Part shown: in pieces, positions 3,457 to 59,344 of the stretch
Position numbering within the stretch: position 1 is the stretch's first letter
How the letters are laid out: each line of letters opens with the position of its first letter
DNA from: a bacterium
GTDB taxonomy: Bacteria; Patescibacteriota; CPR2; UBA1875; CAIMLA01
Reading direction: 5' to 3'
Assembly: GCA_037129835.1 (NCBI GenBank)
Contig: JBAXUE010000002.1
Coordinates: 66,334-130,333 of the forward strand
DNA length: 64,000 nucleotides
Made by a program: the position numbers and the translations under genes
Notes under the pieces: model-generated
Told to the model about the DNA's origin: nothing
What the model saw: only the letters and a program-made list of their open reading frames with translations
The model's database searches: none

Positions 3457-6453
3457 TTAAAACCGGATTTCTTCGCCTGGCTTTATCTCTTTAGTACTAC
3501 TGATGATTATTTTTTCATGTGGAAGTATCGTGGTTATGTCTTTAAAGTCACTAGGAGCTATCTCTCGTTGCTTTTTGTCGCTATGAGTACTGTTTGTATG
3601 TATTGTACTCGGTTTCGCCACTGTGACGATGATTTCTTTTATCTCAGTCTTTGTCTCCAATTTTGGTTTTTCAATGGGGGAATCCAGCTTCTTGGGTTCT
3701 ATATTTTTTGTATTTTCGGTAATTGCCTGTTTTAACTTATCTGCCAGCTGAGTGTTATCGTTTTTTACTTCACTCTTTCCCCTATTTAAATTTGAATTAG
3801 AACGAGAATTTGTGTTCTTTTCTTTATTGTTACTATTAAATTTGTTTTTACTTCTCTCATTATTGTCGTTATGATCATTACTACTATTATTGGAAATATT
3901 GGTATTACCGCTAGCGCTAGGTTTTTCTTTATCTGGTTGCGGAGTAACCATTTCTTTGTTAGCAGGTGGAATGTAATTAGGATTTGTAATAGGTCTATCG
4001 CCTTCGTTGGCATTCACGCCAGCGATTACCGAATCGATATTGTACCATTTCCGAATATCGTCTTCTACTTTCTTTTTTGGAGTACCGTATTTTTTTCGCG
4101 AAATAGCAATTACTATGCTCGTTAGATCTTCCGTTGGCTCTGCAGAGGGAATACTTTTTGCTGAGAATGGTGAGCTATTTACTCCATTTACTGGCATATT
4201 AAGGTATAAATGCCGATTGTCTAGATTGATAAGGTCATTCTGTGAAAATATAGGCTCAAATTCTTTTTCTAGAAAGCTAGCATCTGTTGCGCCCACCCTA
4301 AATGATATCAGAGTACCTACGTTGCCAAATACCGCGTCTCTAACCTCTTCCTCCATCTGTGCAACGTATTGGTTGGCCACAGCTAGGGAAAGATGGTATT
4401 TTCGGGCTTCAGAAAGAATGGTTCCAAAGGATTCTGTGGCAAAATTTTGAAACTCATCAACGTAAAGATAGAAGTCTTTCCTCTCTGATTCAGGAATAAA
4501 CGCTCTTTGCATGGCAGCGAGCTGGATTTTTGTGATTATTAATGAGCCAAGAAGTTCTGAGTTTATCTCCCCTATTTTGCCCGTTGATAGATCTACTAGT
4601 AATATTTTTCCCGTATCCATTATTTCTGAAAAGTTAACAGTGCTTTTTGGTTGACCAACAATATTGCGAATAGTTTCTGAAGCTGTAAATTGGCCAACTT
4701 TATTAAGAATAGGCGCTACAGTCTCAGTAGCCATTTTATCATTATAGGTAGAAAACTCTTTGAGCCAGAACATCTGTACTACTGGGTCAGTTACTTGGCT
4801 AACTACATTTTTGCGATAATTTTTATCGGTTAGCATTCTGACAATACCTAGCATAGTAGAGCCCTCAACTTCTGCTAGCGCTAGTACCGTGTGATTTAAG
4901 ACATATTCTAGCCTTGGCCCCCAGGAGAACCCAAACATTCTCTTCAGTACTGATATAAAGCCCTTTGCAGTCTCTTCACGCATTCCAGGGGGGCTTTCCA
5001 GGGGATTAAAACCTAGGGGAAACTCTTTATCAGAGGGGTTAAGATAAATAACATCATCTAGGCGCTCTTTGGGGATAAATTTAAGAATATTATCTATAGC
5101 CTCTCCATGAGGATCAATAAAGGCTACACCCTCCCCTCTTTGGATATCTTGTATCGCTAAACCTTCAAGAAGCCTAGACTTTCCTACTCCAGTTTTCCCG
5201 ATTATGTACATATGTCTTCGTCTATCATCTCTTTTGATCCCGAACAGTTTATCGCTATTTCGGAAAGTTGTAATCGCAAGGGGTGAAATGTCTTTATCGT
5301 TAATGTTTTCATCAGTAATGAAGGGCAAGCTTGATGGTGGTTCGCCTTTTTTCGAAGATGTCCATACGATATTGGGCGTTTCTACCGAAACATGTGGCAA
5401 GTGATATAAACTTGCAAGTTCTTCAATATTAAGATCATAGCCCTTGTCATTAAATAGTCTTGCCCGATAAGCGTTTAAGAATTCTTCACTTGTAAATAAA
5501 CCCTTCCCAGTAAAGCCATTTAAGTTTGTTGTATTAAATTGTTTAAAAGCACCAACAACGGCTTGAATTTTATCGGTAGCCTTTTCTCTGGACTTAGAAA
5601 GATATACAACCCTTATCATGACGCGATACCCGAGTTTGGCGCTCTTGTCTTCAATGGCTGTTAACTCAGTTTCTTCTGCATGAGAAAGTTTAGGCGCCTC
5701 AGGCTTAGCATCTTTTTTAGCTTCTACGGGTGCAACATTGAGCGCATTGAATATAAAATCTAGAGGGAGGGTGCCGGAGTTGGGTTTTATGGTTTTTTTA
5801 GACGCGATATATGAAAGAGCTTTTTTCCTCCAGTCGTCATTTTCTGGTTTTGCGAGTATTTGAATCCAAATTTGTTCATTTGGCTCATTGGTCATAGAAA
5901 GCATGCCCGTAATTCCTGCCAGCGGGTCAACATCAAAGTTCAAAAAAGTTTTTATTGGGTAAATATCATCTTTTGTAAGAAGTAATTCTGTTCCCGCAAT
6001 AGCATCTGGATTTTTATCACCGTCTACATCGGTTGTTTTTGAGTAGTCATTAACCACTGATATTTCCGCAGTCGGATATTGAGCATAGACTTGACCTTCT
6101 ACAAATTCTTTAATCTTCTTGGGCACCCAGATGAAAAATTCTATAGAATTTAACGTAGAGACGATTTCAAGGCTGAAATGTTCTTGTACGGTGGTTCCCT
6201 TTTTTTGTTCGCTTTTTGAATGAAGAATACCGTGTAGGGCTGCGAACATCATTTCTGCTGCCACAGGGCCTTTCTCATTATTTTTAGGTATTTTTATTGA
6301 TAAGACAGTATGTTCAATTTCGTTTACGTATGAAGCTTTTTTAAAATTTTTCCATGAAAAAAATAGAACTAGTGGTACTATAAACCACCAAGTCCAAACT
6401 ACAACACTCCACATTCCTCCAAGTATCGCTAAGCTAAGTTCCTGCAAAAACAT
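3457..6453 (-). CDS. membrane-anchored TraD/VirD4/HerA-FtsK-like P-loop ATPase with low-complexity C-terminal tail
   Basis: N-terminal TM (WSVVVWTWWFIVPLVLFFSW), Walker A IIGKTGVGKSRLLE, Walker B FYLYVDEFQNF. The last ~190 aa are N/S/K-rich low complexity. Its start overlaps the upstream stop by 1 nt (TAATG). Confidence 0.75.
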   Translation of the reverse strand: MFLQELSLAILGGMWSVVVWTWWFIVPLVLFFSWKNFKKASYVNEIEHTVLSIKIPKNNEKGPVAAEMMFAALHGILHSKSEQKKGTTVQEHFSLEIVSTLNSIEFFIWVPKKIKEFVEGQVYAQYPTAEISVVNDYSKTTDVDGDKNPDAIAGTELLLTKDDIYPIKTFLNFDVDPLAGITGMLSMTNEPNEQIWIQILAKPENDDWRKKALSYIASKKTIKPNSGTLPLDFIFNALNVAPVEAKKDAKPEAPKLSHAEETELTAIEDKSAKLGYRVMIRVVYLSKSREKATDKIQAVVGAFKQFNTTNLNGFTGKGLFTSEEFLNAYRARLFNDKGYDLNIEELASLYHLPHVSVETPNIVWTSSKKGEPPSSLPFITDENINDKDISPLAITTFRNSDKLFGIKRDDRRRHMYIIGKTGVGKSRLLEGLAIQDIQRGEGVAFIDPHGEAIDNILKFIPKERLDDVIYLNPSDKEFPLGFNPLESPPGMREETAKGFISVLKRMFGFSWGPRLEYVLNHTVLALAEVEGSTMLGIVRMLTDKNYRKNVVSQVTDPVVQMFWLKEFSTYNDKMATETVAPILNKVGQFTASETIRNIVGQPKSTVNFSEIMDTGKILLVDLSTGKIGEINSELLGSLIITKIQLAAMQRAFIPESERKDFYLYVDEFQNFATESFGTILSEARKYHLSLAVANQYVAQMEEEVRDAVFGNVGTLISFRVGATDASFLEKEFEPIFSQNDLINLDNRHLYLNMPVNGVNSSPFSAKSIPSAEPTEDLTSIVIAISRKKYGTPKKKVEDDIRKWYNIDSVIAGVNANEGDRPITNPNYIPPANKEMVTPQPDKEKPSASGNTNISNNSSNDHNDNNERSKNKFNSNNKEKNTNSRSNSNLNRGKSEVKNDNTQLADKLKQAITENTKNIEPKKLDSPIEKPKLETKTEIKEIIVTVAKPSTIHTNSTHSDKKQREIAPSDFKDITTILPHEKIIISSTKEIKPGEEIRF

Positions 6454-31134: not shown

Positions 31135-33018
31135 TTATCTTAGCCTATAGTTTGCCTTTTTAAGGCTATCTTTAAAATAGTAAACAAATCTACACTTTCC
31201 TGCCTCGTTTCTGATCAACATAATATGGTGCTTTGCATTGGGAAAAGCGACCATTTCTGTACCACCAAAAACACCCCTACTTCTGTATAAAAAGTCCTTA
31301 TATTCAAGGTCATCTGTTTTTGAAACCATTCTTATTGGATGGAATGCTATGTCCTTGTCTGCAGTCATTCCACTGTATACAATAAAATTAATTAGAAATA
31401 GAGGCACCACACTGCCACCGTAAAGCCGGTTAACTTCTTTTAGCTTTTGGATATTACTTATTCCTTTTTTACTAATAATATCTGAAAAAATGCTAGCGTA
31501 ATCAAACATAGGAAAATACATTTCGTTTTTGTCAGTTAATATATTCTTCTTGTCGATACTAGAACTAGAGGCGGGCTTAACTCTTTGGCTTGAAATCCAA
31601 ACTGGTGCTGCACCCTCGTCATTGCTTTTTAATGATTTTAAAGATAAATCATGAAAAATAAAACAACGGTGCCAGTCCTCGAAAAGTGATTTTGGTATTG
31701 AGAGTTCAAAGAAGTCTTTGTATTTGCCTCTACTGCCGAACATTCTAGCTCTTTGGATATAAGTGTCTTGTTGAATCCTGTGTTTAGCAGTTCGTGTGAA
31801 GAACATGCCCAAAAGATTCTTTATTGTTAAGCCCCGGGAAATTATATTTCCACCAATTATTATTGTAAAAAGAGCTGGTGCATTAGTTGGGTCTTCTTCC
31901 ATTTTATTATTTGAGTTAATAACATAAACTTTTTTCTTATTAACATAATCTTTGACAAATGTTGTCACTTCTTTTGCTGCTATATCACCAAATCTTTCTT
32001 CTGCAATACTGTGTATTATTCCAAGGTAACGTTCCCATTTGGGACCCTTATTTGTATCTGCCAGTGCGTCAAAAAAATTATCTACAATTTTTTTATCTCT
32101 TTCGTGTTCACTTTTAATGCCACTTGTATGAATAATAAAAGCAAAATTAACATCATCATTATTCGCATTTTGTTCTACGAGCTTTTCCTTGTACTCGGGA
32201 TTTATATTTAAATAAGAAGCATTAACTAAAAAGCTTGCTAAAGCTTCATGTAAATATGATGGGTCATCTCCATTCTCAGGAAGTATATTCACCATGTATT
32301 CAACTTCGGTTATTTTTTCTAGATTAATTGGAAAAAAAAAGTCTTTGCCTACATAATTTTTATGAGAATCAAAAAATACCCATTCTTCAGATAAATTATC
32401 AAAAGTATTGTTAAGATCTAGTCGTGCTGGAGTGGCTGTTACCCCAACGTAGGTGCCGTCTCTTCGAAGTAATTTGCCGATTTCGTTATTAATTGCCGTT
32501 ACTTCATCTTTATTTATTTTAGAATTTGGGCTGGCATAATCAGCCTCGTCATCAATTATTATTAAACCACTTCTATTTCTTAGTTTTTCGTTTAAATTTG
32601 TTAAATTGCGGATATTTTTCTTTGAAAAAATTATAACCTGCCCATCATTTAAGTCTTCTTCAAGAAAAGCCCTGCTAGACATGGTATCTGGTGTAGGGTC
32701 GATACCTGAACTAGTAAATCTTTCGAGATTTTGAAGTTCAAGCTTTTTATTGTCATTCATGAGAATAACAATAGTGTTGTTGCCAATATCAAGTAATTTT
32801 GCTGTAAGCGATATCATCATTTCGGTTTTGCCACTTTGTGGCTCACCGTAAATCACAAATGATGTTATACCCTTTTGAATTTTTTCTACTGAATCTGAAA
32901 CAGCGTTTTCAATTTGAAAAGTATCAATACCCTTTTTATCTCTAAGGAAATTAATTCTTTTCTCATATCGGCTGTTTCTTCTATTTTCTGAGTCTCTATA
33001 ATCATCTGGATTAAACAT
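31135..33018 (-). CDS. Z1-domain protein with SF2-helicase-like ATPase core
   Basis: GEPQSGKTE (Walker A), IIIDDEADYAS (DEAD-like), VGVTATPARL, GGNIISRGLTIKNLLGMFFTR, DTYIQRARMFGSRGKY. SD GGAGAG before the ATG. Confidence 0.8.
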   Translation of the reverse strand: MFNPDDYRDSENRRNSRYEKRINFLRDKKGIDTFQIENAVSDSVEKIQKGITSFVIYGEPQSGKTEMMISLTAKLLDIGNNTIVILMNDNKKLELQNLERFTSSGIDPTPDTMSSRAFLEEDLNDGQVIIFSKKNIRNLTNLNEKLRNRSGLIIIDDEADYASPNSKINKDEVTAINNEIGKLLRRDGTYVGVTATPARLDLNNTFDNLSEEWVFFDSHKNYVGKDFFFPINLEKITEVEYMVNILPENGDDPSYLHEALASFLVNASYLNINPEYKEKLVEQNANNDDVNFAFIIHTSGIKSEHERDKKIVDNFFDALADTNKGPKWERYLGIIHSIAEERFGDIAAKEVTTFVKDYVNKKKVYVINSNNKMEEDPTNAPALFTIIIGGNIISRGLTIKNLLGMFFTRTAKHRIQQDTYIQRARMFGSRGKYKDFFELSIPKSLFEDWHRCFIFHDLSLKSLKSNDEGAAPVWISSQRVKPASSSSIDKKNILTDKNEMYFPMFDYASIFSDIISKKGISNIQKLKEVNRLYGGSVVPLFLINFIVYSGMTADKDIAFHPIRMVSKTDDLEYKDFLYRSRGVFGGTEMVAFPNAKHHIMLIRNEAGKCRFVYYFKDSLKKANYRLR

Positions 33019-33044
33019 AGCTCTCCAAATTTAATATATATTAT

Positions 33045-33073
33045 ATTCTACTCTCCTTTTGTGCTTATCGCAA
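33045..33073 (-). promoter_or_regulatory. putative sigma-70 promoter of the Z1 operon
   Basis: On the - strand: TTGCGA-17 nt-TAGAAT, about 27 nt upstream of the Z1 ATG. The -35 overlaps the small palindrome TGCTT..AAGCA. Confidence 0.4.
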
Positions 33074-33109
33074 GCATAAATTCGGTTTGACGGCTCTAGG
33101 CATCGGATA

Positions 33110-33137
33110 TTGACAACTAAAATACGCGGAGTATAAT
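33110..33137 (+). promoter_or_regulatory. consensus sigma-70 promoter (TTGACA-16 nt-TATAAT) facing away from the Z1 operon
   Basis: Exact -35 (33110-33115) and exact -10 (33132-33137) hexamers on the + strand in a non-coding gap. Confidence 0.6.
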
Positions 33138-33142
33138 TATTC

Positions 33143-33243
33143 ATGAAGAGAGCAGTAATGCCTATGTAACGCCGAGTGGAGGCACCTCGATAGAGGGCCC
33201 GTGAAGCGAGGAGCACGAGTATATAGGTCACCTCTTCTTTTTT
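33143..33243 (+). ncRNA. candidate ~100-nt small RNA (unknown class) between DUF3800 and Z1 genes
   Basis: Starts just downstream of the consensus promoter. Closing stem GAAGAG (33145-50)/CTCTTC (33232-37) is followed by T6. Inner 8-bp hairpin GCACCTCG (33182-89)/CGAGGAGC (33207-14). G+C-richer than its surroundings. The only ORF here (33031..33231 -) lacks an SD. Confidence 0.45.
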
Positions 33244-33877
33244 ATAGCTTATTTTCTAAATATATTAAATTAACTTTTTTACCTAGTTTAGTCAGAGTTT
33301 TTTTATTTCCATACAGGTGACTATGAATAATTCCACATATCTGATCTGCTATTTGTAGATTTGCTTCTTCTGACGTGCCAAAATCAATACGAAAGTCCGA
33401 CTCTGGGTACTCTAGTTTTAGTTCGGTCTCGATAGTTCTTGATAAACCTTCTTTATTAATTAATTTTGTTTTAAAACTATCTAAAGTCACTATAGTCACC
33501 TTTTCACGTTTAAATGTTTTGCTAGATTCAAGCAAAACCTTCTTTACAAGGTTGATGTACAACCTGTCATAGACAAGCTTACTTTTGTAATAATATTTCT
33601 GAGACAGCAGATTCTTGCTCTGAGAAGCAGCGAATACTGTAATCTCAGGTGCTGGACACTCAGGACTAAAGATATATGGCAATATATACAAGTCTGATAA
33701 AGCATTTGAGCTCTTTATTTCACCTTTCGGATAACTGGCAGGTAGTGCCTTCCTCTTAACCTTCTTATACCATTTCGCCGTCTCACCCGGATTTGCAGTG
33801 CTAAAACCGGCCACAGCCATAAACTGATTTTTTGTGCCCTTTTCTAAGTTAAAAGTTTCGTCGATATAGATAAACAT
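33242..33877 (-). CDS. DUF3800-like protein
   Basis: N-terminus MFIYIDETFNL (the IYIDE acidic motif typical of DUF3800). 211 aa. Confidence 0.65.
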   Translation of the reverse strand: MFIYIDETFNLEKGTKNQFMAVAGFSTANPGETAKWYKKVKRKALPASYPKGEIKSSNALSDLYILPYIFSPECPAPEITVFAASQSKNLLSQKYYYKSKLVYDRLYINLVKKVLLESSKTFKREKVTIVTLDSFKTKLINKEGLSRTIETELKLEYPESDFRIDFGTSEEANLQIADQICGIIHSHLYGNKKTLTKLGKKVNLIYLENKL

Positions 33878-33941
33878 ACTTATATTTTACCCTTGCCATA
33901 GGATAAAACTAGTAGACAAGTTGAAACAGCACGCTAGCCTA

Positions 33942-56358: not shown

Positions 56359-56931
56359 CTATTCTTTGTTTAGCCATGGAAACATTTTGACGAGCTCTAT
56401 GTTTCTTTCGTCATTTTTTTCTAACGAGGCAAGGTTAAATAGTTTTTCTTTGCCAAATTCGGACATGATCAAATTGACCATAGTTATACCCACTTGATAT
56501 TTATCACCGTTTTGGGTGTAGCTAAGTTTATTCAGTAACTGTATATTTATATCTTCTTGGGTCCAAGTACTACTTTGGCCAGCAACGTATCCGCAGACAC
56601 CTTCTATTAACCATCCTGGCGTATGCTTATTGCTGACAGGGCGTAAATATTTATGAACCAGTTCGTGTTTTAAAACTTTCTGAAATCTGATGTGACCTGG
56701 ATCCTTTTGCGGGGGCATTCCATTTGGACCAATAATGTAAATATGGTTTTGGGGAGAAAAGCCAACGAGGTAGTCTGGGGCTGGGATATCATCATTTCTG
56801 TTTTTGTCATAAAAAGTAATAATATCTTTTTGACTATCAAACAAAACAACGTCTATATCTTTTAGTGGTTTGGTGCCGAAAAAGTCTGCCACTTCCTGAT
56901 TGTACCTTTGGGCTAGATCGTTTGTATCCAT
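56359..56931 (-). CDS. Peptidase_MA-like HExxH protein (paralog of 20616..21254)
   Basis: VLKHELVHKYL followed by GWLIEGVCGYVAGQ. Same layout as the 20616 protein. No signal peptide. Confidence 0.6.
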   Translation of the reverse strand: MDTNDLAQRYNQEVADFFGTKPLKDIDVVLFDSQKDIITFYDKNRNDDIPAPDYLVGFSPQNHIYIIGPNGMPPQKDPGHIRFQKVLKHELVHKYLRPVSNKHTPGWLIEGVCGYVAGQSSTWTQEDINIQLLNKLSYTQNGDKYQVGITMVNLIMSEFGKEKLFNLASLEKNDERNIELVKMFPWLNKE

Positions 56932-56949: not shown

Positions 56950-58038
56950 TTAATTGATTCTATATACCATACCACCAATATGCTTAATTTTGCCAGATAT
57001 TTCCATAATGGTTATAGCAGAGCTTATTTCACTTTGGGAGAGCCCGGCTTTTTTTGAAATCTCGTCAATGTGTTTTGGTTCTAGTCTTAGCACTTCGATA
57101 ATTGTTTTTTCTGTTTTATTGCTACCAACTGCTTGGCGCATCTCGGAAACTACTTCAGGGCAAGAAAACCCAAATTCATCATAGACGTCTTGAACACTGG
57201 TAAGGACATGAGCTCCAGATTTGATCAGGTTGTTTGTTCCAATACTGGCTAAACTAAATATATTTCCAGGAACGGCAAAAACTTCTCTGTTCTGGTTCAG
57301 TGCCGAAAGCGCAGTGATGAGGCTTCCAGAGCTCTCTGCTGCTTCGGTAACGATGAGACCCTGAGATATACCGCTAATGATTCGGTTTCTGGCTGGGAAG
57401 TTTTGTTTTAATGGAGGAGTGTCGAATGGATATTCAGAGATTATTGCTCCGTTACCGATGATTTCGCGAGATAATCTAAAGTTGCTGCTCGGATAGATCT
57501 GATTCAGGCCGCAGCCGATAACCGCAATAGTCTGCCCACCGCCAGATAGGGCTCCTTTGTGAGCGGCAGTATCGATGCCAATTGCTAGCCCACTAACGAC
57601 TGTCACACCTCCCATGGCAAGTTCGCTGGTAATCTTTTCTGTGACGCGGAGGCCATAGTCAGAGGGTCTTCTACTGCCTACTACGCCGATACATAACTGA
57701 TTTAGCTTGGCTGTGCCCTTTTTGTATAGAATAAATGGAGGATCGTAAATCTGTTTCAACAGTTCGGGGTAGTCATTTTCAAAAATAAAGACAGGCTCTA
57801 TATTATTTTGTTTAAGTTCGTGGAGAACGTTTTCTGGTTTGTAGTTCTCTTTTGAGAATATGAATTCTTTGAGACATCGCTTGCTTAGTTTGAGAGCTCT
57901 TAGCTTGCTATCGGGTAGCTCGAACAAATTATTTATGGGAGCGTCTAAGGCGAAAACCTCAAGAAACAGAGAGGCAGTGAATCGAGCATTTCTACCTAGT
58001 GTAAGCCAATATATGTAGTCTTCAATATTCTTTTCCAC
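56950..58038 (-). CDS. dprA: DNA-processing protein DprA
   Basis: GVVGSRRPSDYG and SGLAIGIDTAAHKGAL, plus a C-terminal wHTH. Start set to GTG at 58038 (GGAGGGG upstream). The listed start at 58095 is TTG and overlaps a + strand promoter. Confidence 0.88.
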   Translation of the reverse strand: MEKNIEDYIYWLTLGRNARFTASLFLEVFALDAPINNLFELPDSKLRALKLSKRCLKEFIFSKENYKPENVLHELKQNNIEPVFIFENDYPELLKQIYDPPFILYKKGTAKLNQLCIGVVGSRRPSDYGLRVTEKITSELAMGGVTVVSGLAIGIDTAAHKGALSGGGQTIAVIGCGLNQIYPSSNFRLSREIIGNGAIISEYPFDTPPLKQNFPARNRIISGISQGLIVTEAAESSGSLITALSALNQNREVFAVPGNIFSLASIGTNNLIKSGAHVLTSVQDVYDEFGFSCPEVVSEMRQAVGSNKTEKTIIEVLRLEPKHIDEISKKAGLSQSEISSAITIMEISGKIKHIGGMVYRIN

Positions 58039-58056
58039 AACCCCTCCAAAAAACAC

Positions 58057-58085
58057 TTGACAAAAGTAGCCAACAGTGCTAGAAT
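58057..58085 (+). promoter_or_regulatory. near-consensus sigma-70 promoter TTGACA-17 nt-TAGAAT
   Basis: Read directly. It points into the 58.09-58.34 kb non-coding gap. Confidence 0.55.
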
Positions 58086-58091
58086 AAATAG

Positions 58092-58341
58092 TCAACCTAA
58101 ATCAGGATGACATTTGACAATAAGTTTCTCTAGGTAAACGCCAGTTATGGCGAGTGTCCTATCAATGAGTAAGGCCTTAAACACCCTCCTTTAAGCTTAC
58201 TTGTTGGTAGGGTTCTCCCCGTAACCGCCAGCCAATATTTTGGGCTAGGTAAAGTCTTCGGATCGAGTTACACTAACGGGAGAACTTTGAAACAAAAGTA
58301 AGGGAGTCGTATTTATACGGCTCCCTTACTTTATTATATTT
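58092..58341 (+). ncRNA. candidate ~250-nt ncRNA of unknown class
   Basis: Bounded by the promoter above and a 17-bp-stem terminator (AAGTAAGGGAGTCGTAT/ATACGGCTCCCTTACTT plus a T-rich tail). Internal hairpins: CGCCA-GTTA-TGGCG, AGTAAG..CTTAAA-CACCCTCC-TTTAAG-CTTACT, and a UUCG loop at 58254-58261. No credible ORF. G+C-richer than its flanks. Confidence 0.4.
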
Positions 58342-58375
58342 AAGTGTTTATGACTAGTGGACAAGGAAAAATTAA

Positions 58376-59344
58376 CTATTCTTTAACTATTTTCACAACA
58401 TTAATTTTCGGGGTTACTTTTACCACTACAGGTTGCTTTATTTTTGGTAGGCTCACATCACTTCCCTCTCGCACTTCAGCTGTGGCAAAGATGTTATTAG
58501 ATTCTTTCGGTAATACTCTCTCTCGGATAAACGCCAGTCTTTCTGGGTCTAAAGAGTCAGGATCTACAATTGCTGCTACCATACTGTCACAAAAATCTTC
58601 AGCAGCAGAATGGATTGCATATTCGCTGATACACCTTGATGGATCTTTGGGTTTAAAATACAAAGTAAGGCCACCAGGTGTTGTTATGCCTTCTGGGACG
58701 TGTTCCCAGCCAAAATCTTTCTGCCATTTATCTAGTTGTTTAGAGGCCAAACTGTGAGAAAGCTCATGAATTAATGTCCCTTCAAAGTTTGATGTAGCCG
58801 ATATTCGGTGTTGTTTGTCTTCTAACGCAGGAGGATAAAGCTTAATTGCACCTTCGCCTGTTTCTGCGTAACCATTTAGTGGCTCATTAGTGTATTTATT
58901 AATCTCGTTTTTGTCATCAATTAGAATATATTTAACGGTATTAAGAGCTTCGCCACCTAAGATATTAGAGAATTTCTCTAATATGGATTTTAGCTGAAAT
59001 ATTCTCTTGTCTTCTATTTTTTGACTAAAACTGTATAATTCAAGGCTGTACTCACCTACTTTAATCGATACTTGTTGTTCTGGTATGCCTTTTTCTCTCC
59101 ACTTATCCTGTAACCACCAATTATTACTAATAATTTCTTCTTTTGCTTTTTCTTCAATATTTTCTTGAGAAACTGTAATATCTGCCACTCGATCACTACC
59201 ATCTTCTAGAAATTCAAATTTAATGTCGTTTATTTTTTCATACTCTCGATCTTTCGGTAATTGGAATTCAGAAGCCTTGATATTAGAAATAATTTTGTGA
59301 CTTTCTTTTTTCATTTCTTGAAAATCTACTAGTTGTTTTTCCAT
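58376..59344 (-). CDS. hypothetical HExxH protein (322 aa)
   Basis: GTLIHELSHSLA motif. Acidic N-half, no signal peptide. Confidence 0.55.
   Translation of the reverse strand: MEKQLVDFQEMKKESHKIISNIKASEFQLPKDREYEKINDIKFEFLEDGSDRVADITVSQENIEEKAKEEIISNNWWLQDKWREKGIPEQQVSIKVGEYSLELYSFSQKIEDKRIFQLKSILEKFSNILGGEALNTVKYILIDDKNEINKYTNEPLNGYAETGEGAIKLYPPALEDKQHRISATSNFEGTLIHELSHSLASKQLDKWQKDFGWEHVPEGITTPGGLTLYFKPKDPSRCISEYAIHSAAEDFCDSMVAAIVDPDSLDPERLAFIRERVLPKESNNIFATAEVREGSDVSLPKIKQPVVVKVTPKINVVKIVKE

Follow-up and report, generated by a model that had tools for sequence, protein, structure and literature searches.

A conserved, structured small RNA gene divergent from dprA in one Patescibacteria-like clade

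Comparison with homologous loci shows that the gap upstream of dprA in a 64,000-nucleotide (nt) stretch of a Patescibacteriota genome (contig JBAXUE010000002.1, positions 66,334 to 130,333; hereafter the window, with its own numbering) holds a stand-alone plus-strand gene for a structured small RNA (sRNA). The RNA measures ~205 nt to the base of its terminator and ~250 nt with the terminator included. An earlier note on this DNA had proposed an independent noncoding RNA antisense to the local genes and had named conservation and covariation of dprA-upstream gaps as a check. Both were found and, together with strand-specific G·U pairs, they uphold the proposal and argue that the gap is not merely the dprA 5′ untranslated region joined to the terminator of the upstream gene. 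The sRNA constitutes a new RNA family. Its general kind, the stand-alone structured bacterial small RNA, is familiar, but it combines its features in an unusual way.

The family was delineated from contigs encoding DprA homologues of 45-66% identity and from JGI metagenomes scanned with a pattern derived from the 152-nt RNA core. In nhmmer searches the gap matched genomes with a DprA of just 57-66% identity at E values of 1e-43 to 1e-56, and profile and covariance models extended the family to 18 distinct sequences from metagenomes or metagenome-assembled genomes (DprA 45-66% identical). Assembled genomes bearing the RNA include GCA_041738615.1, GCA_028718325.1, GCA_964594415.1 and GCA_023473595.1, and JGI 3300009774 and 3300032069 are among the source samples. 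The JGI pattern scan returned 13 true matches and two unrelated ones (L108 and L114), which are chance hits in unrelated coding sequence. A 372-kb ENA metagenome contig (ERZ27300174) matches the window, and a fragment from a near-identical relative (L111) carries the same RNA core and encodes a Pth protein of 90% identity. Two alignments were used, namely A3 with 15 sequences and A5 with 19, the latter including the divergent members L115-L117. Identities to the window were as follows:

RNA core, long forms: 82-89%
RNA core, short forms: 69-73%
dprA DNA: 55-64%
Pth protein, most loci: 41-66%
TopA protein: 46-84%

Neither of its neighbours, pth and dprA, is thus as well conserved as the RNA. 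The RNA is also narrowly distributed. The closest DprA relatives bearing any organism label are labelled Patescibacteria, and neither nhmmer nor two covariance models found the RNA in 80 dprA loci of other GTDB lineages, including Daviesbacteria, Paceibacterota, Saccharibacteria and Berkelbacteria (best DprA identity 48%), which argues that the family is restricted to one clade. Phages and plasmids gave no match by blastn, and viral contigs none in the pattern scan. The RNA is found only in one clade resembling the Candidate Phyla Radiation (CPR, or Patescibacteria), and not on a known mobile element.

The gene and its structural parts, all on the plus strand, are listed below:

58048-58053, plus strand: A-tract CCTCCAAAAAAYGCTTGACA, UP-element-like, read from the sequence and kept in long-form homologues
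58057-58062, plus strand: −35 hexamer TTGACA from the promoter scan, identical in 18 of 18 distinct homologues
58077-58085, plus strand: extended −10 element TGcTAGAAT (TG at 58077-58078, TAGAAT at 58080-58085), 17 nt after the −35 box
58091-58111, plus strand: inferred transcript start at ~58091 and 5′ hairpin H0, GUCAACCU-AAAUC-AGGAUGAC, from minimum free energy (MFE) folds
58112-58121, plus strand: single-stranded block AUUUGACAAU, nearly invariant in long forms
58122-58130, plus strand: 5′ strand of the closing helix P1, AAGUUUCUC, pairing with 58280-58287 (95.8% of cells paired)
58131-58143, plus strand: 5′ strand of P1b, a variable linker pairing with the ‘down’ segment around 58267-58271
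58144-58225, plus strand: P2, an imperfect hairpin of ~40 base pairs (bp) with a few mismatches, from RNAalifold
58181-58194, plus strand: invariant block ACACCCUCCUUUAA, identical in the 15 sequences of A3
58182-58189, plus strand: 8-nt apical loop CACCCUCC at the tip of P2, unpaired in every fold
58227-58250, plus strand: P3 hairpin, GCCAGCC / GGCU(A)GGU with a variable loop (100% of cells paired; 3 of 7 pairs compensatory in A5)
58254-58263, plus strand: P4 hairpin, GUC-UUCG-GAU (100% of cells paired; 2 of 3 pairs compensatory in A5)
58264-58279, plus strand: ‘down’ segment, GUUAC at 58267-58271 plus linker, the 3′ strand of P1b in fold A or a partner of 58212-58225 in fold B
58280-58293, plus strand: 3′ strand of P1, GAGAACUU (58280-58287), followed by UUGAAAC (58287-58293)
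58295-58341, plus strand: intrinsic terminator, a 17-bp stem (58295-58332; 7 of 17 pairs G-C) with a U-rich tail

The near-consensus promoter that had been read from this strand, TTGACA-17-TAGAAT, is of the sigma-70 type, scores 11 out of 12 in the promoter scan and carries an extended −10 element in addition. Promoter-like sites across the region are not above chance (8 found, 7.0 ± 2.7 expected); this one, however, retains both hexamers and the 17-nt distance between them in each of the 18 distinct homologues, in which the −10 element reads TGn-TAGAAT, TACAAT or TAAAAT and the spacer sequence is free to vary. The A-tract upstream of the −35 box is a candidate UP element, and transcription would start at about 58091, as derived from the position of the −10 box. 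The hairpin H0 at that end is paired in 84% of cells in A3 and is missing from the short forms L094, L096 and L105. At the other end, the 17-bp hairpin with T-rich tails on both sides lies where the earlier note placed it, and every homologue has a hairpin and a U-run at this position, with the stem sequence changing by compensatory substitutions (10 of 14 pairs by A3 counts). The terminator is bidirectional, the minus-strand stem being followed by UUUUGUUUC, and it should therefore also stop minus-strand transcription arriving from the convergent gene beyond it, which is an open reading frame (ORF) with an HExxH motif in the window and pth in relatives. A resemblance of the terminator to domain V of group II introns was rejected because the stem sequence is not conserved.

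Two short sequences at the ends of the gene are recorded here in their own right. A second TTGACA (58114-58119) lies inside the transcribed block AUUUGACAAU and lacks a −10 partner; long forms keep it except L113, which has UUCGACAA, and a similar string, CUUUGAAACAAAAGU, recurs ahead of the terminator, so that the two could be repeated protein-binding sites. Beyond the terminator, at a distance of 15-25 nt, stands the 12-nt motif ACTAGTGGACAA (ACTAGTRGACAA; consensus TACWAGTRGACAA) at 58353-58364, which is kept in all long-form homologues regardless of the neighbouring gene. An exact second copy occurs at 33908-33919, in a 64-bp gap upstream of a DUF3800 gene (33242-33877, minus strand) and beside GTTGAAAC, and with one mismatch allowed there are three matches against 1.2 expected by chance. 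This motif may be a protein-binding site or a promoter element.

Between promoter and terminator, the body of the RNA (58092-58294) folds with a z-score of −3.68 on the plus strand and −1.15 on the minus strand. The consensus, obtained with RNAalifold and hand-checked counts, is a four-way junction formed by P1/P1b, P2, P3 and P4, and the closed rod-like shape suggested earlier does not hold. Standard pairs fill 97.3% of the 1015 pair cells of A3, where double-sided changes occur in 17 pairs; 0 of 500 column shuffles reach these values, and sliding the partners by one to three columns leaves only 34-54% standard pairs. In A5, which was fitted to the model so that its counts lean toward the model's structure, the standard fraction is 98.6%, compensatory changes affect 15 of 41 pairs, and 0 of 500 shuffles reach any of five measures.

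The 5′ and 3′ segments, which had been thought able to pair, do so as P1: a G-C pair becomes U-A in L117 (AAUUUCUC/GAGAAAUU), pairs are exchanged in L116, and in short forms both strands are lost together. The GGAG of the 3′ strand is present in 18 of 18 homologues and the final GAAAC in all but L117 (GAAAU). P1b appears in the MFE structure of most homologues. P2 is paired in 97.8-98.9% of cells, with double-sided changes in 10 of 25 pairs (A5), and in L117 most of the sequence of P3, of P4 and of the inner half of P2 has changed, with pairing retained. The internal hairpins noticed previously, one with the CCUCC-type loop CACCCUCC and one with a UUCG loop, are thus both real elements of the consensus, the loop of P4 varying among UUCG, UUACG, AAAU and UAUAA. 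The strands of the junction itself (AACCGCC, AGGUYAAG and GUGUU) are conserved.

The same counts assign the strand. G·U pairs account for 17% of paired cells, and reading the whole set of pairs from the opposite strand leaves just 81.7% of them standard, which identifies a plus-strand RNA rather than a dprA leader. Coding explanations were also rejected. The gap at 58048-58375 has no ORF of at least 40 amino acids (aa) except an antisense one running from 58344 into the HExxH gene, whose stop lies at 58376, and the description of the gap as ORF-free accordingly stands at this cut-off. By eye, the variable positions do not follow any obvious 3-nt period, and the minus-strand AAAGGAGGG (GGAGG), which might have led a small ORF or leader peptide, is not followed by a start codon at a usable distance. 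The gap was also said to be richer in G+C than its flanks, and the difference is modest but real (0.447-0.453 at 58100-58299 against 0.31-0.39).

It is very improbable that the element is a divergent copy of a universal RNA, namely signal recognition particle (SRP) RNA, RNase P RNA or transfer-messenger RNA (tmRNA), or a minus-strand leader or riboswitch of dprA. Such an origin would suit its place directly upstream of dprA, and the window has no universal small RNA, so that the genome's copies are unaccounted for here. However, Rfam 15 gave no family at gathering score anywhere in the 64-kb window, and ARAGORN found zero tRNA or tmRNA genes in it; some Patescibacteria tRNA genes are reported to escape standard tools owing to group I introns (PMC13011429). 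No covariance model matched for tmRNA either. The only long hairpin ends in the 8-nt C-rich loop CACCCUCC, not in the GNRA-capped helix 8 of bacterial SRP RNA, and at ~205 nt the RNA is too short for RNase P RNA, whose conserved blocks are absent. The failure of the first reading to match SRP, tmRNA or RNase P blocks is therefore confirmed by Rfam and ARAGORN. As for a leader or riboswitch, 17% of paired cells are broken when the sequence is read on the minus strand, whose folding does not exceed that of shuffled controls. Promoter and terminator both belong to the plus strand, and no same-strand gene follows the terminator, which argues against such a role on the plus strand as well. When the window element and the divergent members L117 and L115 were searched against Rfam at E ≤ 10, only generic hairpin and microRNA noise with no shared family was returned. 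Named seed-loop families (RsaE, csRNA, Yfr1 and LhrC) gave no Rfam match, and a search of full-text literature turned up no account of a comparable sRNA.

The fold has a competitor. The 3′ base of P2, here called ‘mid’ (GGGUUCUCCCUGCAAC, 58210-58225), has two alternative partners: in fold A it pairs with the ‘up’ strand (58144-58157), and in fold B with ‘down’ plus the 3′ strand of P1 (GUUAC…GGGAGAAC, 58267-58285), which encloses P3 and P4 in a three-way junction. Paired cells amount to 95-99% or 90-95% for the two alternatives, each with compensatory changes, as the divergent segments illustrate:

L094: mid CUCCAGGUAAC, up GUUGUCUGCAG, down GUUUCUCUGGAG
L096: mid CUCCAGAUAAC, up GUUGUCUGUGG, down GUUACUGGAG
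L115: mid CUCCAAACAAC, up GUUGCUUUGAG, down GUUGUUGGAG

In a duplex-energy permutation test that ignores phylogeny, cognate up:mid, mid:down and 5′-region:down duplexes beat non-cognate ones, with 0, 0 and 19 of 5000 permutations, respectively, reaching the cognate mean. A further hairpin, var:up, was rejected: purines and pyrimidines appeared correlated by eye, but the cognate advantage was absent in the duplex test. Under constrained folding, A is the more stable fold by 0.5-8.4 kcal/mol in 16 of 18 sequences; L092 and L094 favour B. Neither pairing overlaps the terminator in this small sequence set. We regard fold A as the ground state, and a functional switch between A and B is plausible but unproven.

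The alternative pairing is also one of the features that recall 6S RNA, the comparison proposed in the earlier note. A 6S-like RNA would sequester the sigma-70 RNA polymerase holoenzyme by mimicking an open promoter and would template product RNAs (pRNAs), and a size of ~200 nt, paired 5′ and 3′ ends and a strong promoter of its own would all fit. 6S RNA rearranges on release, and the two folds here bring that to mind. The idea nevertheless fares poorly and is improbable: RF00013 and the 6S clan models are unmatched even at E ≤ 10 in three divergent members (the window, L117 and L115), and the four-way junction leaves at most 3 unpaired nt on its 5′ side where 6S RNA has its template bubble, so that there is no large central bubble. 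Conservation of sequence, including that of the apical loop, is likewise unlike 6S families.

The apical loop is the most conserved feature of the RNA, its central CACCCUCCUUUAA being identical in all 18 distinct homologues. With its flank it reads GACACCCUCCUUU, which matches at 10 of 13 positions what we take to be the canonical 3′ tail of 16S rRNA, GAUCACCUCCUUU, this canonical form standing in for the host's own 16S. In many sRNAs of Gram-positive bacteria and cyanobacteria, unpaired C-rich loops serve as the seeds that occlude ribosome-binding sites. Two traits of such seed-loop sRNAs are present here, namely an independent gene whose promoter and intrinsic terminator are both kept in the 18 homologues, and an invariant unpaired C-rich loop complementary to Shine-Dalgarno (SD) sequences. 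On this basis we tentatively favour a trans-acting RNA that works through its anti-SD-like loop. By pairing with the GGAGG-type ribosome-binding sites of certain mRNAs, the loop CACCCUCC could keep the 30S subunit from binding them; alternatively, it could act as a decoy for a factor recognising the 16S tail. The junction and P1 would supply stability and a protein-binding platform. In a rough duplex scan of the loop against 54 predicted start regions of the window, with the starts guessed, the best partners were a few GGAGGG-type sites, and the dprA start ranked third (−16.0 kcal/mol; median −8.2). The loop does not serve dprA exclusively, because it is invariant even though dprA lacks an upstream GGAGG in L094, L096, L115, L116 and L117 and has been lost in L107.

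Several points weigh against a trans-acting seed-loop RNA. GGAGG precedes only 9 of the 54 predicted genes of the window, the transcript start is placed from the promoter position alone, and the covariation statistics come from 18 related sequences of one clade. Strict synteny with dprA over deep divergence also fits a role in cis. Moreover, near-complete constraint over ~150 nt, a four-way junction and a covarying alternative exceed what a simple seed loop needs and point to a protein partner, a ligand or another role. In a different account, the RNA is a housekeeping ribonucleoprotein (RNP) component, a ligand sensor or a catalytic RNA of an undescribed class, its loop, junction and folds serving a protein, the ribosome or a small molecule. 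Conservation above that of pth and dprA, the conserved junction strands, a strong, constitutive-looking promoter and two mutually exclusive pairings that are close in energy and each cognate-specific all speak for such an RNA. Its restriction to one clade speaks against it, no partner protein gene co-varies in the neighbourhood, and nothing points to a ligand or to catalysis; we consider this account possible but doubtful. A more specific version of the anti-SD idea, rather unlikely in our judgement, is a CPR-specific mimic of the 16S tail, that is, a bistable four-way-junction RNA or RNP that would compete for SD-led mRNAs or titrate a factor binding the anti-SD tail. If true, it would imply global or competence-linked translational control in minimal cells, for which there is no described counterpart.

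The locus bears on these readings through its constant neighbour, dprA. All local genes are on the minus strand (der, pth, the HExxH ORF, dprA, a 190-aa ORF and topA), and those closest to the RNA are as follows:

56359-56931, minus strand: ORF of 190 aa following dprA
56950-58038, minus strand: dprA, with a GTG start at 58038, the constant divergent neighbour of the RNA
58041-58047, minus strand: dprA SD sequence GGAGGGG, 10 nt from the −35 box of the sRNA
58376-59344, minus strand: HExxH ORF of 322 aa, on the other flank of the RNA in the window

The RNA lies directly upstream of dprA on the opposite strand at every locus in which that flank is present. The opposite neighbour differs: most relatives have pth there and the window has the HExxH ORF, L092 and L093 carry other small ORFs, and in L084 the place is taken by an inverted pth block. 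Of the placement first described, between dprA and an HExxH gene, the dprA side is therefore a constant property and the HExxH side incidental, since relatives have no HExxH gene at that position.

This fixed linkage favours a further explanation, in which the RNA acts in cis on dprA through antisense pairing with a read-through leader, transcriptional interference or promoter occlusion. In long forms the −35 box stands 10 nt from the dprA SD sequence, the terminator is bidirectional, and the promoter scan of the window found no convincing dprA promoter between the sRNA promoter and dprA, so that the dprA transcript would have to begin within the sRNA gene or past it. Within that gene a conserved dprA promoter was also sought, in the scan and by reading the homologues, and none was convincing. 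However, locus L107 keeps the RNA with promoter and terminator intact (match E = 7e-89) beside a degraded dprA, an N-terminal remnant of ~104 aa that abuts topA, and retention of the RNA does not depend on an intact dprA. In L117, the sRNA promoter and dprA are ~100 nt apart, with a TATAAT box between them. Helix-preserving covariation and an invariant loop would also be superfluous for a purely antisense or interference role. A cis role as the whole explanation is therefore unlikely in our view. Shared control DNA is the probable reason for the tight divergent linkage, and the RNA perhaps regulates dprA in some members; dprA is not its sole purpose.

Some features of these neighbours were noted separately. 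Downstream of the bidirectional terminator, the sequence shows no evident sigma-70-like promoter for dprA. In L107, positions 3715-4193 and 4623-4934 cover the dprA remnant and an insert rich in G+C, which lies between pth and the terminator of the sRNA and has overlapping ORFs on both strands. The HExxH ORF has no Pfam match above threshold and is missing from this position in all relatives, and it therefore resembles an insertion specific to this lineage that came to lie between pth and the sRNA. For the 190-aa ORF there is a sub-threshold match to the BSP peptidase family. Elsewhere in the window, at 31135-33877 on the minus strand, a gene for a Z1-domain / SWI2-SNF2 ATPase (627 aa) adjoins the DUF3800 gene mentioned above, an arrangement that looks like a small defence-type island.

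CPR/Patescibacteria have tiny genomes in which RNA-based regulation is almost undescribed, and this RNA is at least a new family overlooked by current annotation pipelines. Its length, conservation, promoter, covarying junction, 16S-like loop and possible switching suggest an important role. Its fixed place beside dprA, a key gene of the DNA-uptake pathway that these organisms are thought to need, gives a testable hypothesis.

Among known systems, the loop resembles the 16S 3′ tail itself, the anti-Shine-Dalgarno sequence, from which the sRNA differs in presenting this sequence, with one extra C, in a closed hairpin loop and not at a free 3′ end. The sRNAs with C-rich or anti-SD seeds (RsaE/RoxS, LhrC, csRNAs, Yfr1 and the C-rich loops of Staphylococcus aureus RNAIII) are also stand-alone genes with a promoter and an intrinsic terminator, and they carry the same unpaired CCCUCC in a hairpin loop, complementary to GGAGG ribosome-binding sites; the pneumococcal csRNAs among them regulate competence genes. 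Compared with these, the dprA-side RNA is two to four times larger than most, has no sequence or covariance model match to them, and displays just one C-rich loop, which caps a ~40-bp arm of the four-way junction, with nearly the whole core constrained, an alternative fold that covaries, and targets that are predicted only. With 6S RNA (RF00013) it shares a length of ~200 nt, paired ends, an abundant-looking promoter and possibly two conformations; it differs in forming a four-way junction and not a rod, in lacking a central bubble and a covariance model match, and in having a sequence-invariant apical loop. Finally, the raiA motif RNA of Firmicutes and Actinobacteria has a multi-stem fold and is associated with raiA and comFC. 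Like the RNA described here, it is medium-sized, multi-stemmed and highly conserved, and forms an independent transcription unit of unknown biochemical function, and its position beside the competence-pathway gene comFC parallels that of the present RNA beside dprA. The RNA reported here has no Rfam match to raiA, however, and its helices, conserved nucleotides and phylum, a CPR clade, are all different.

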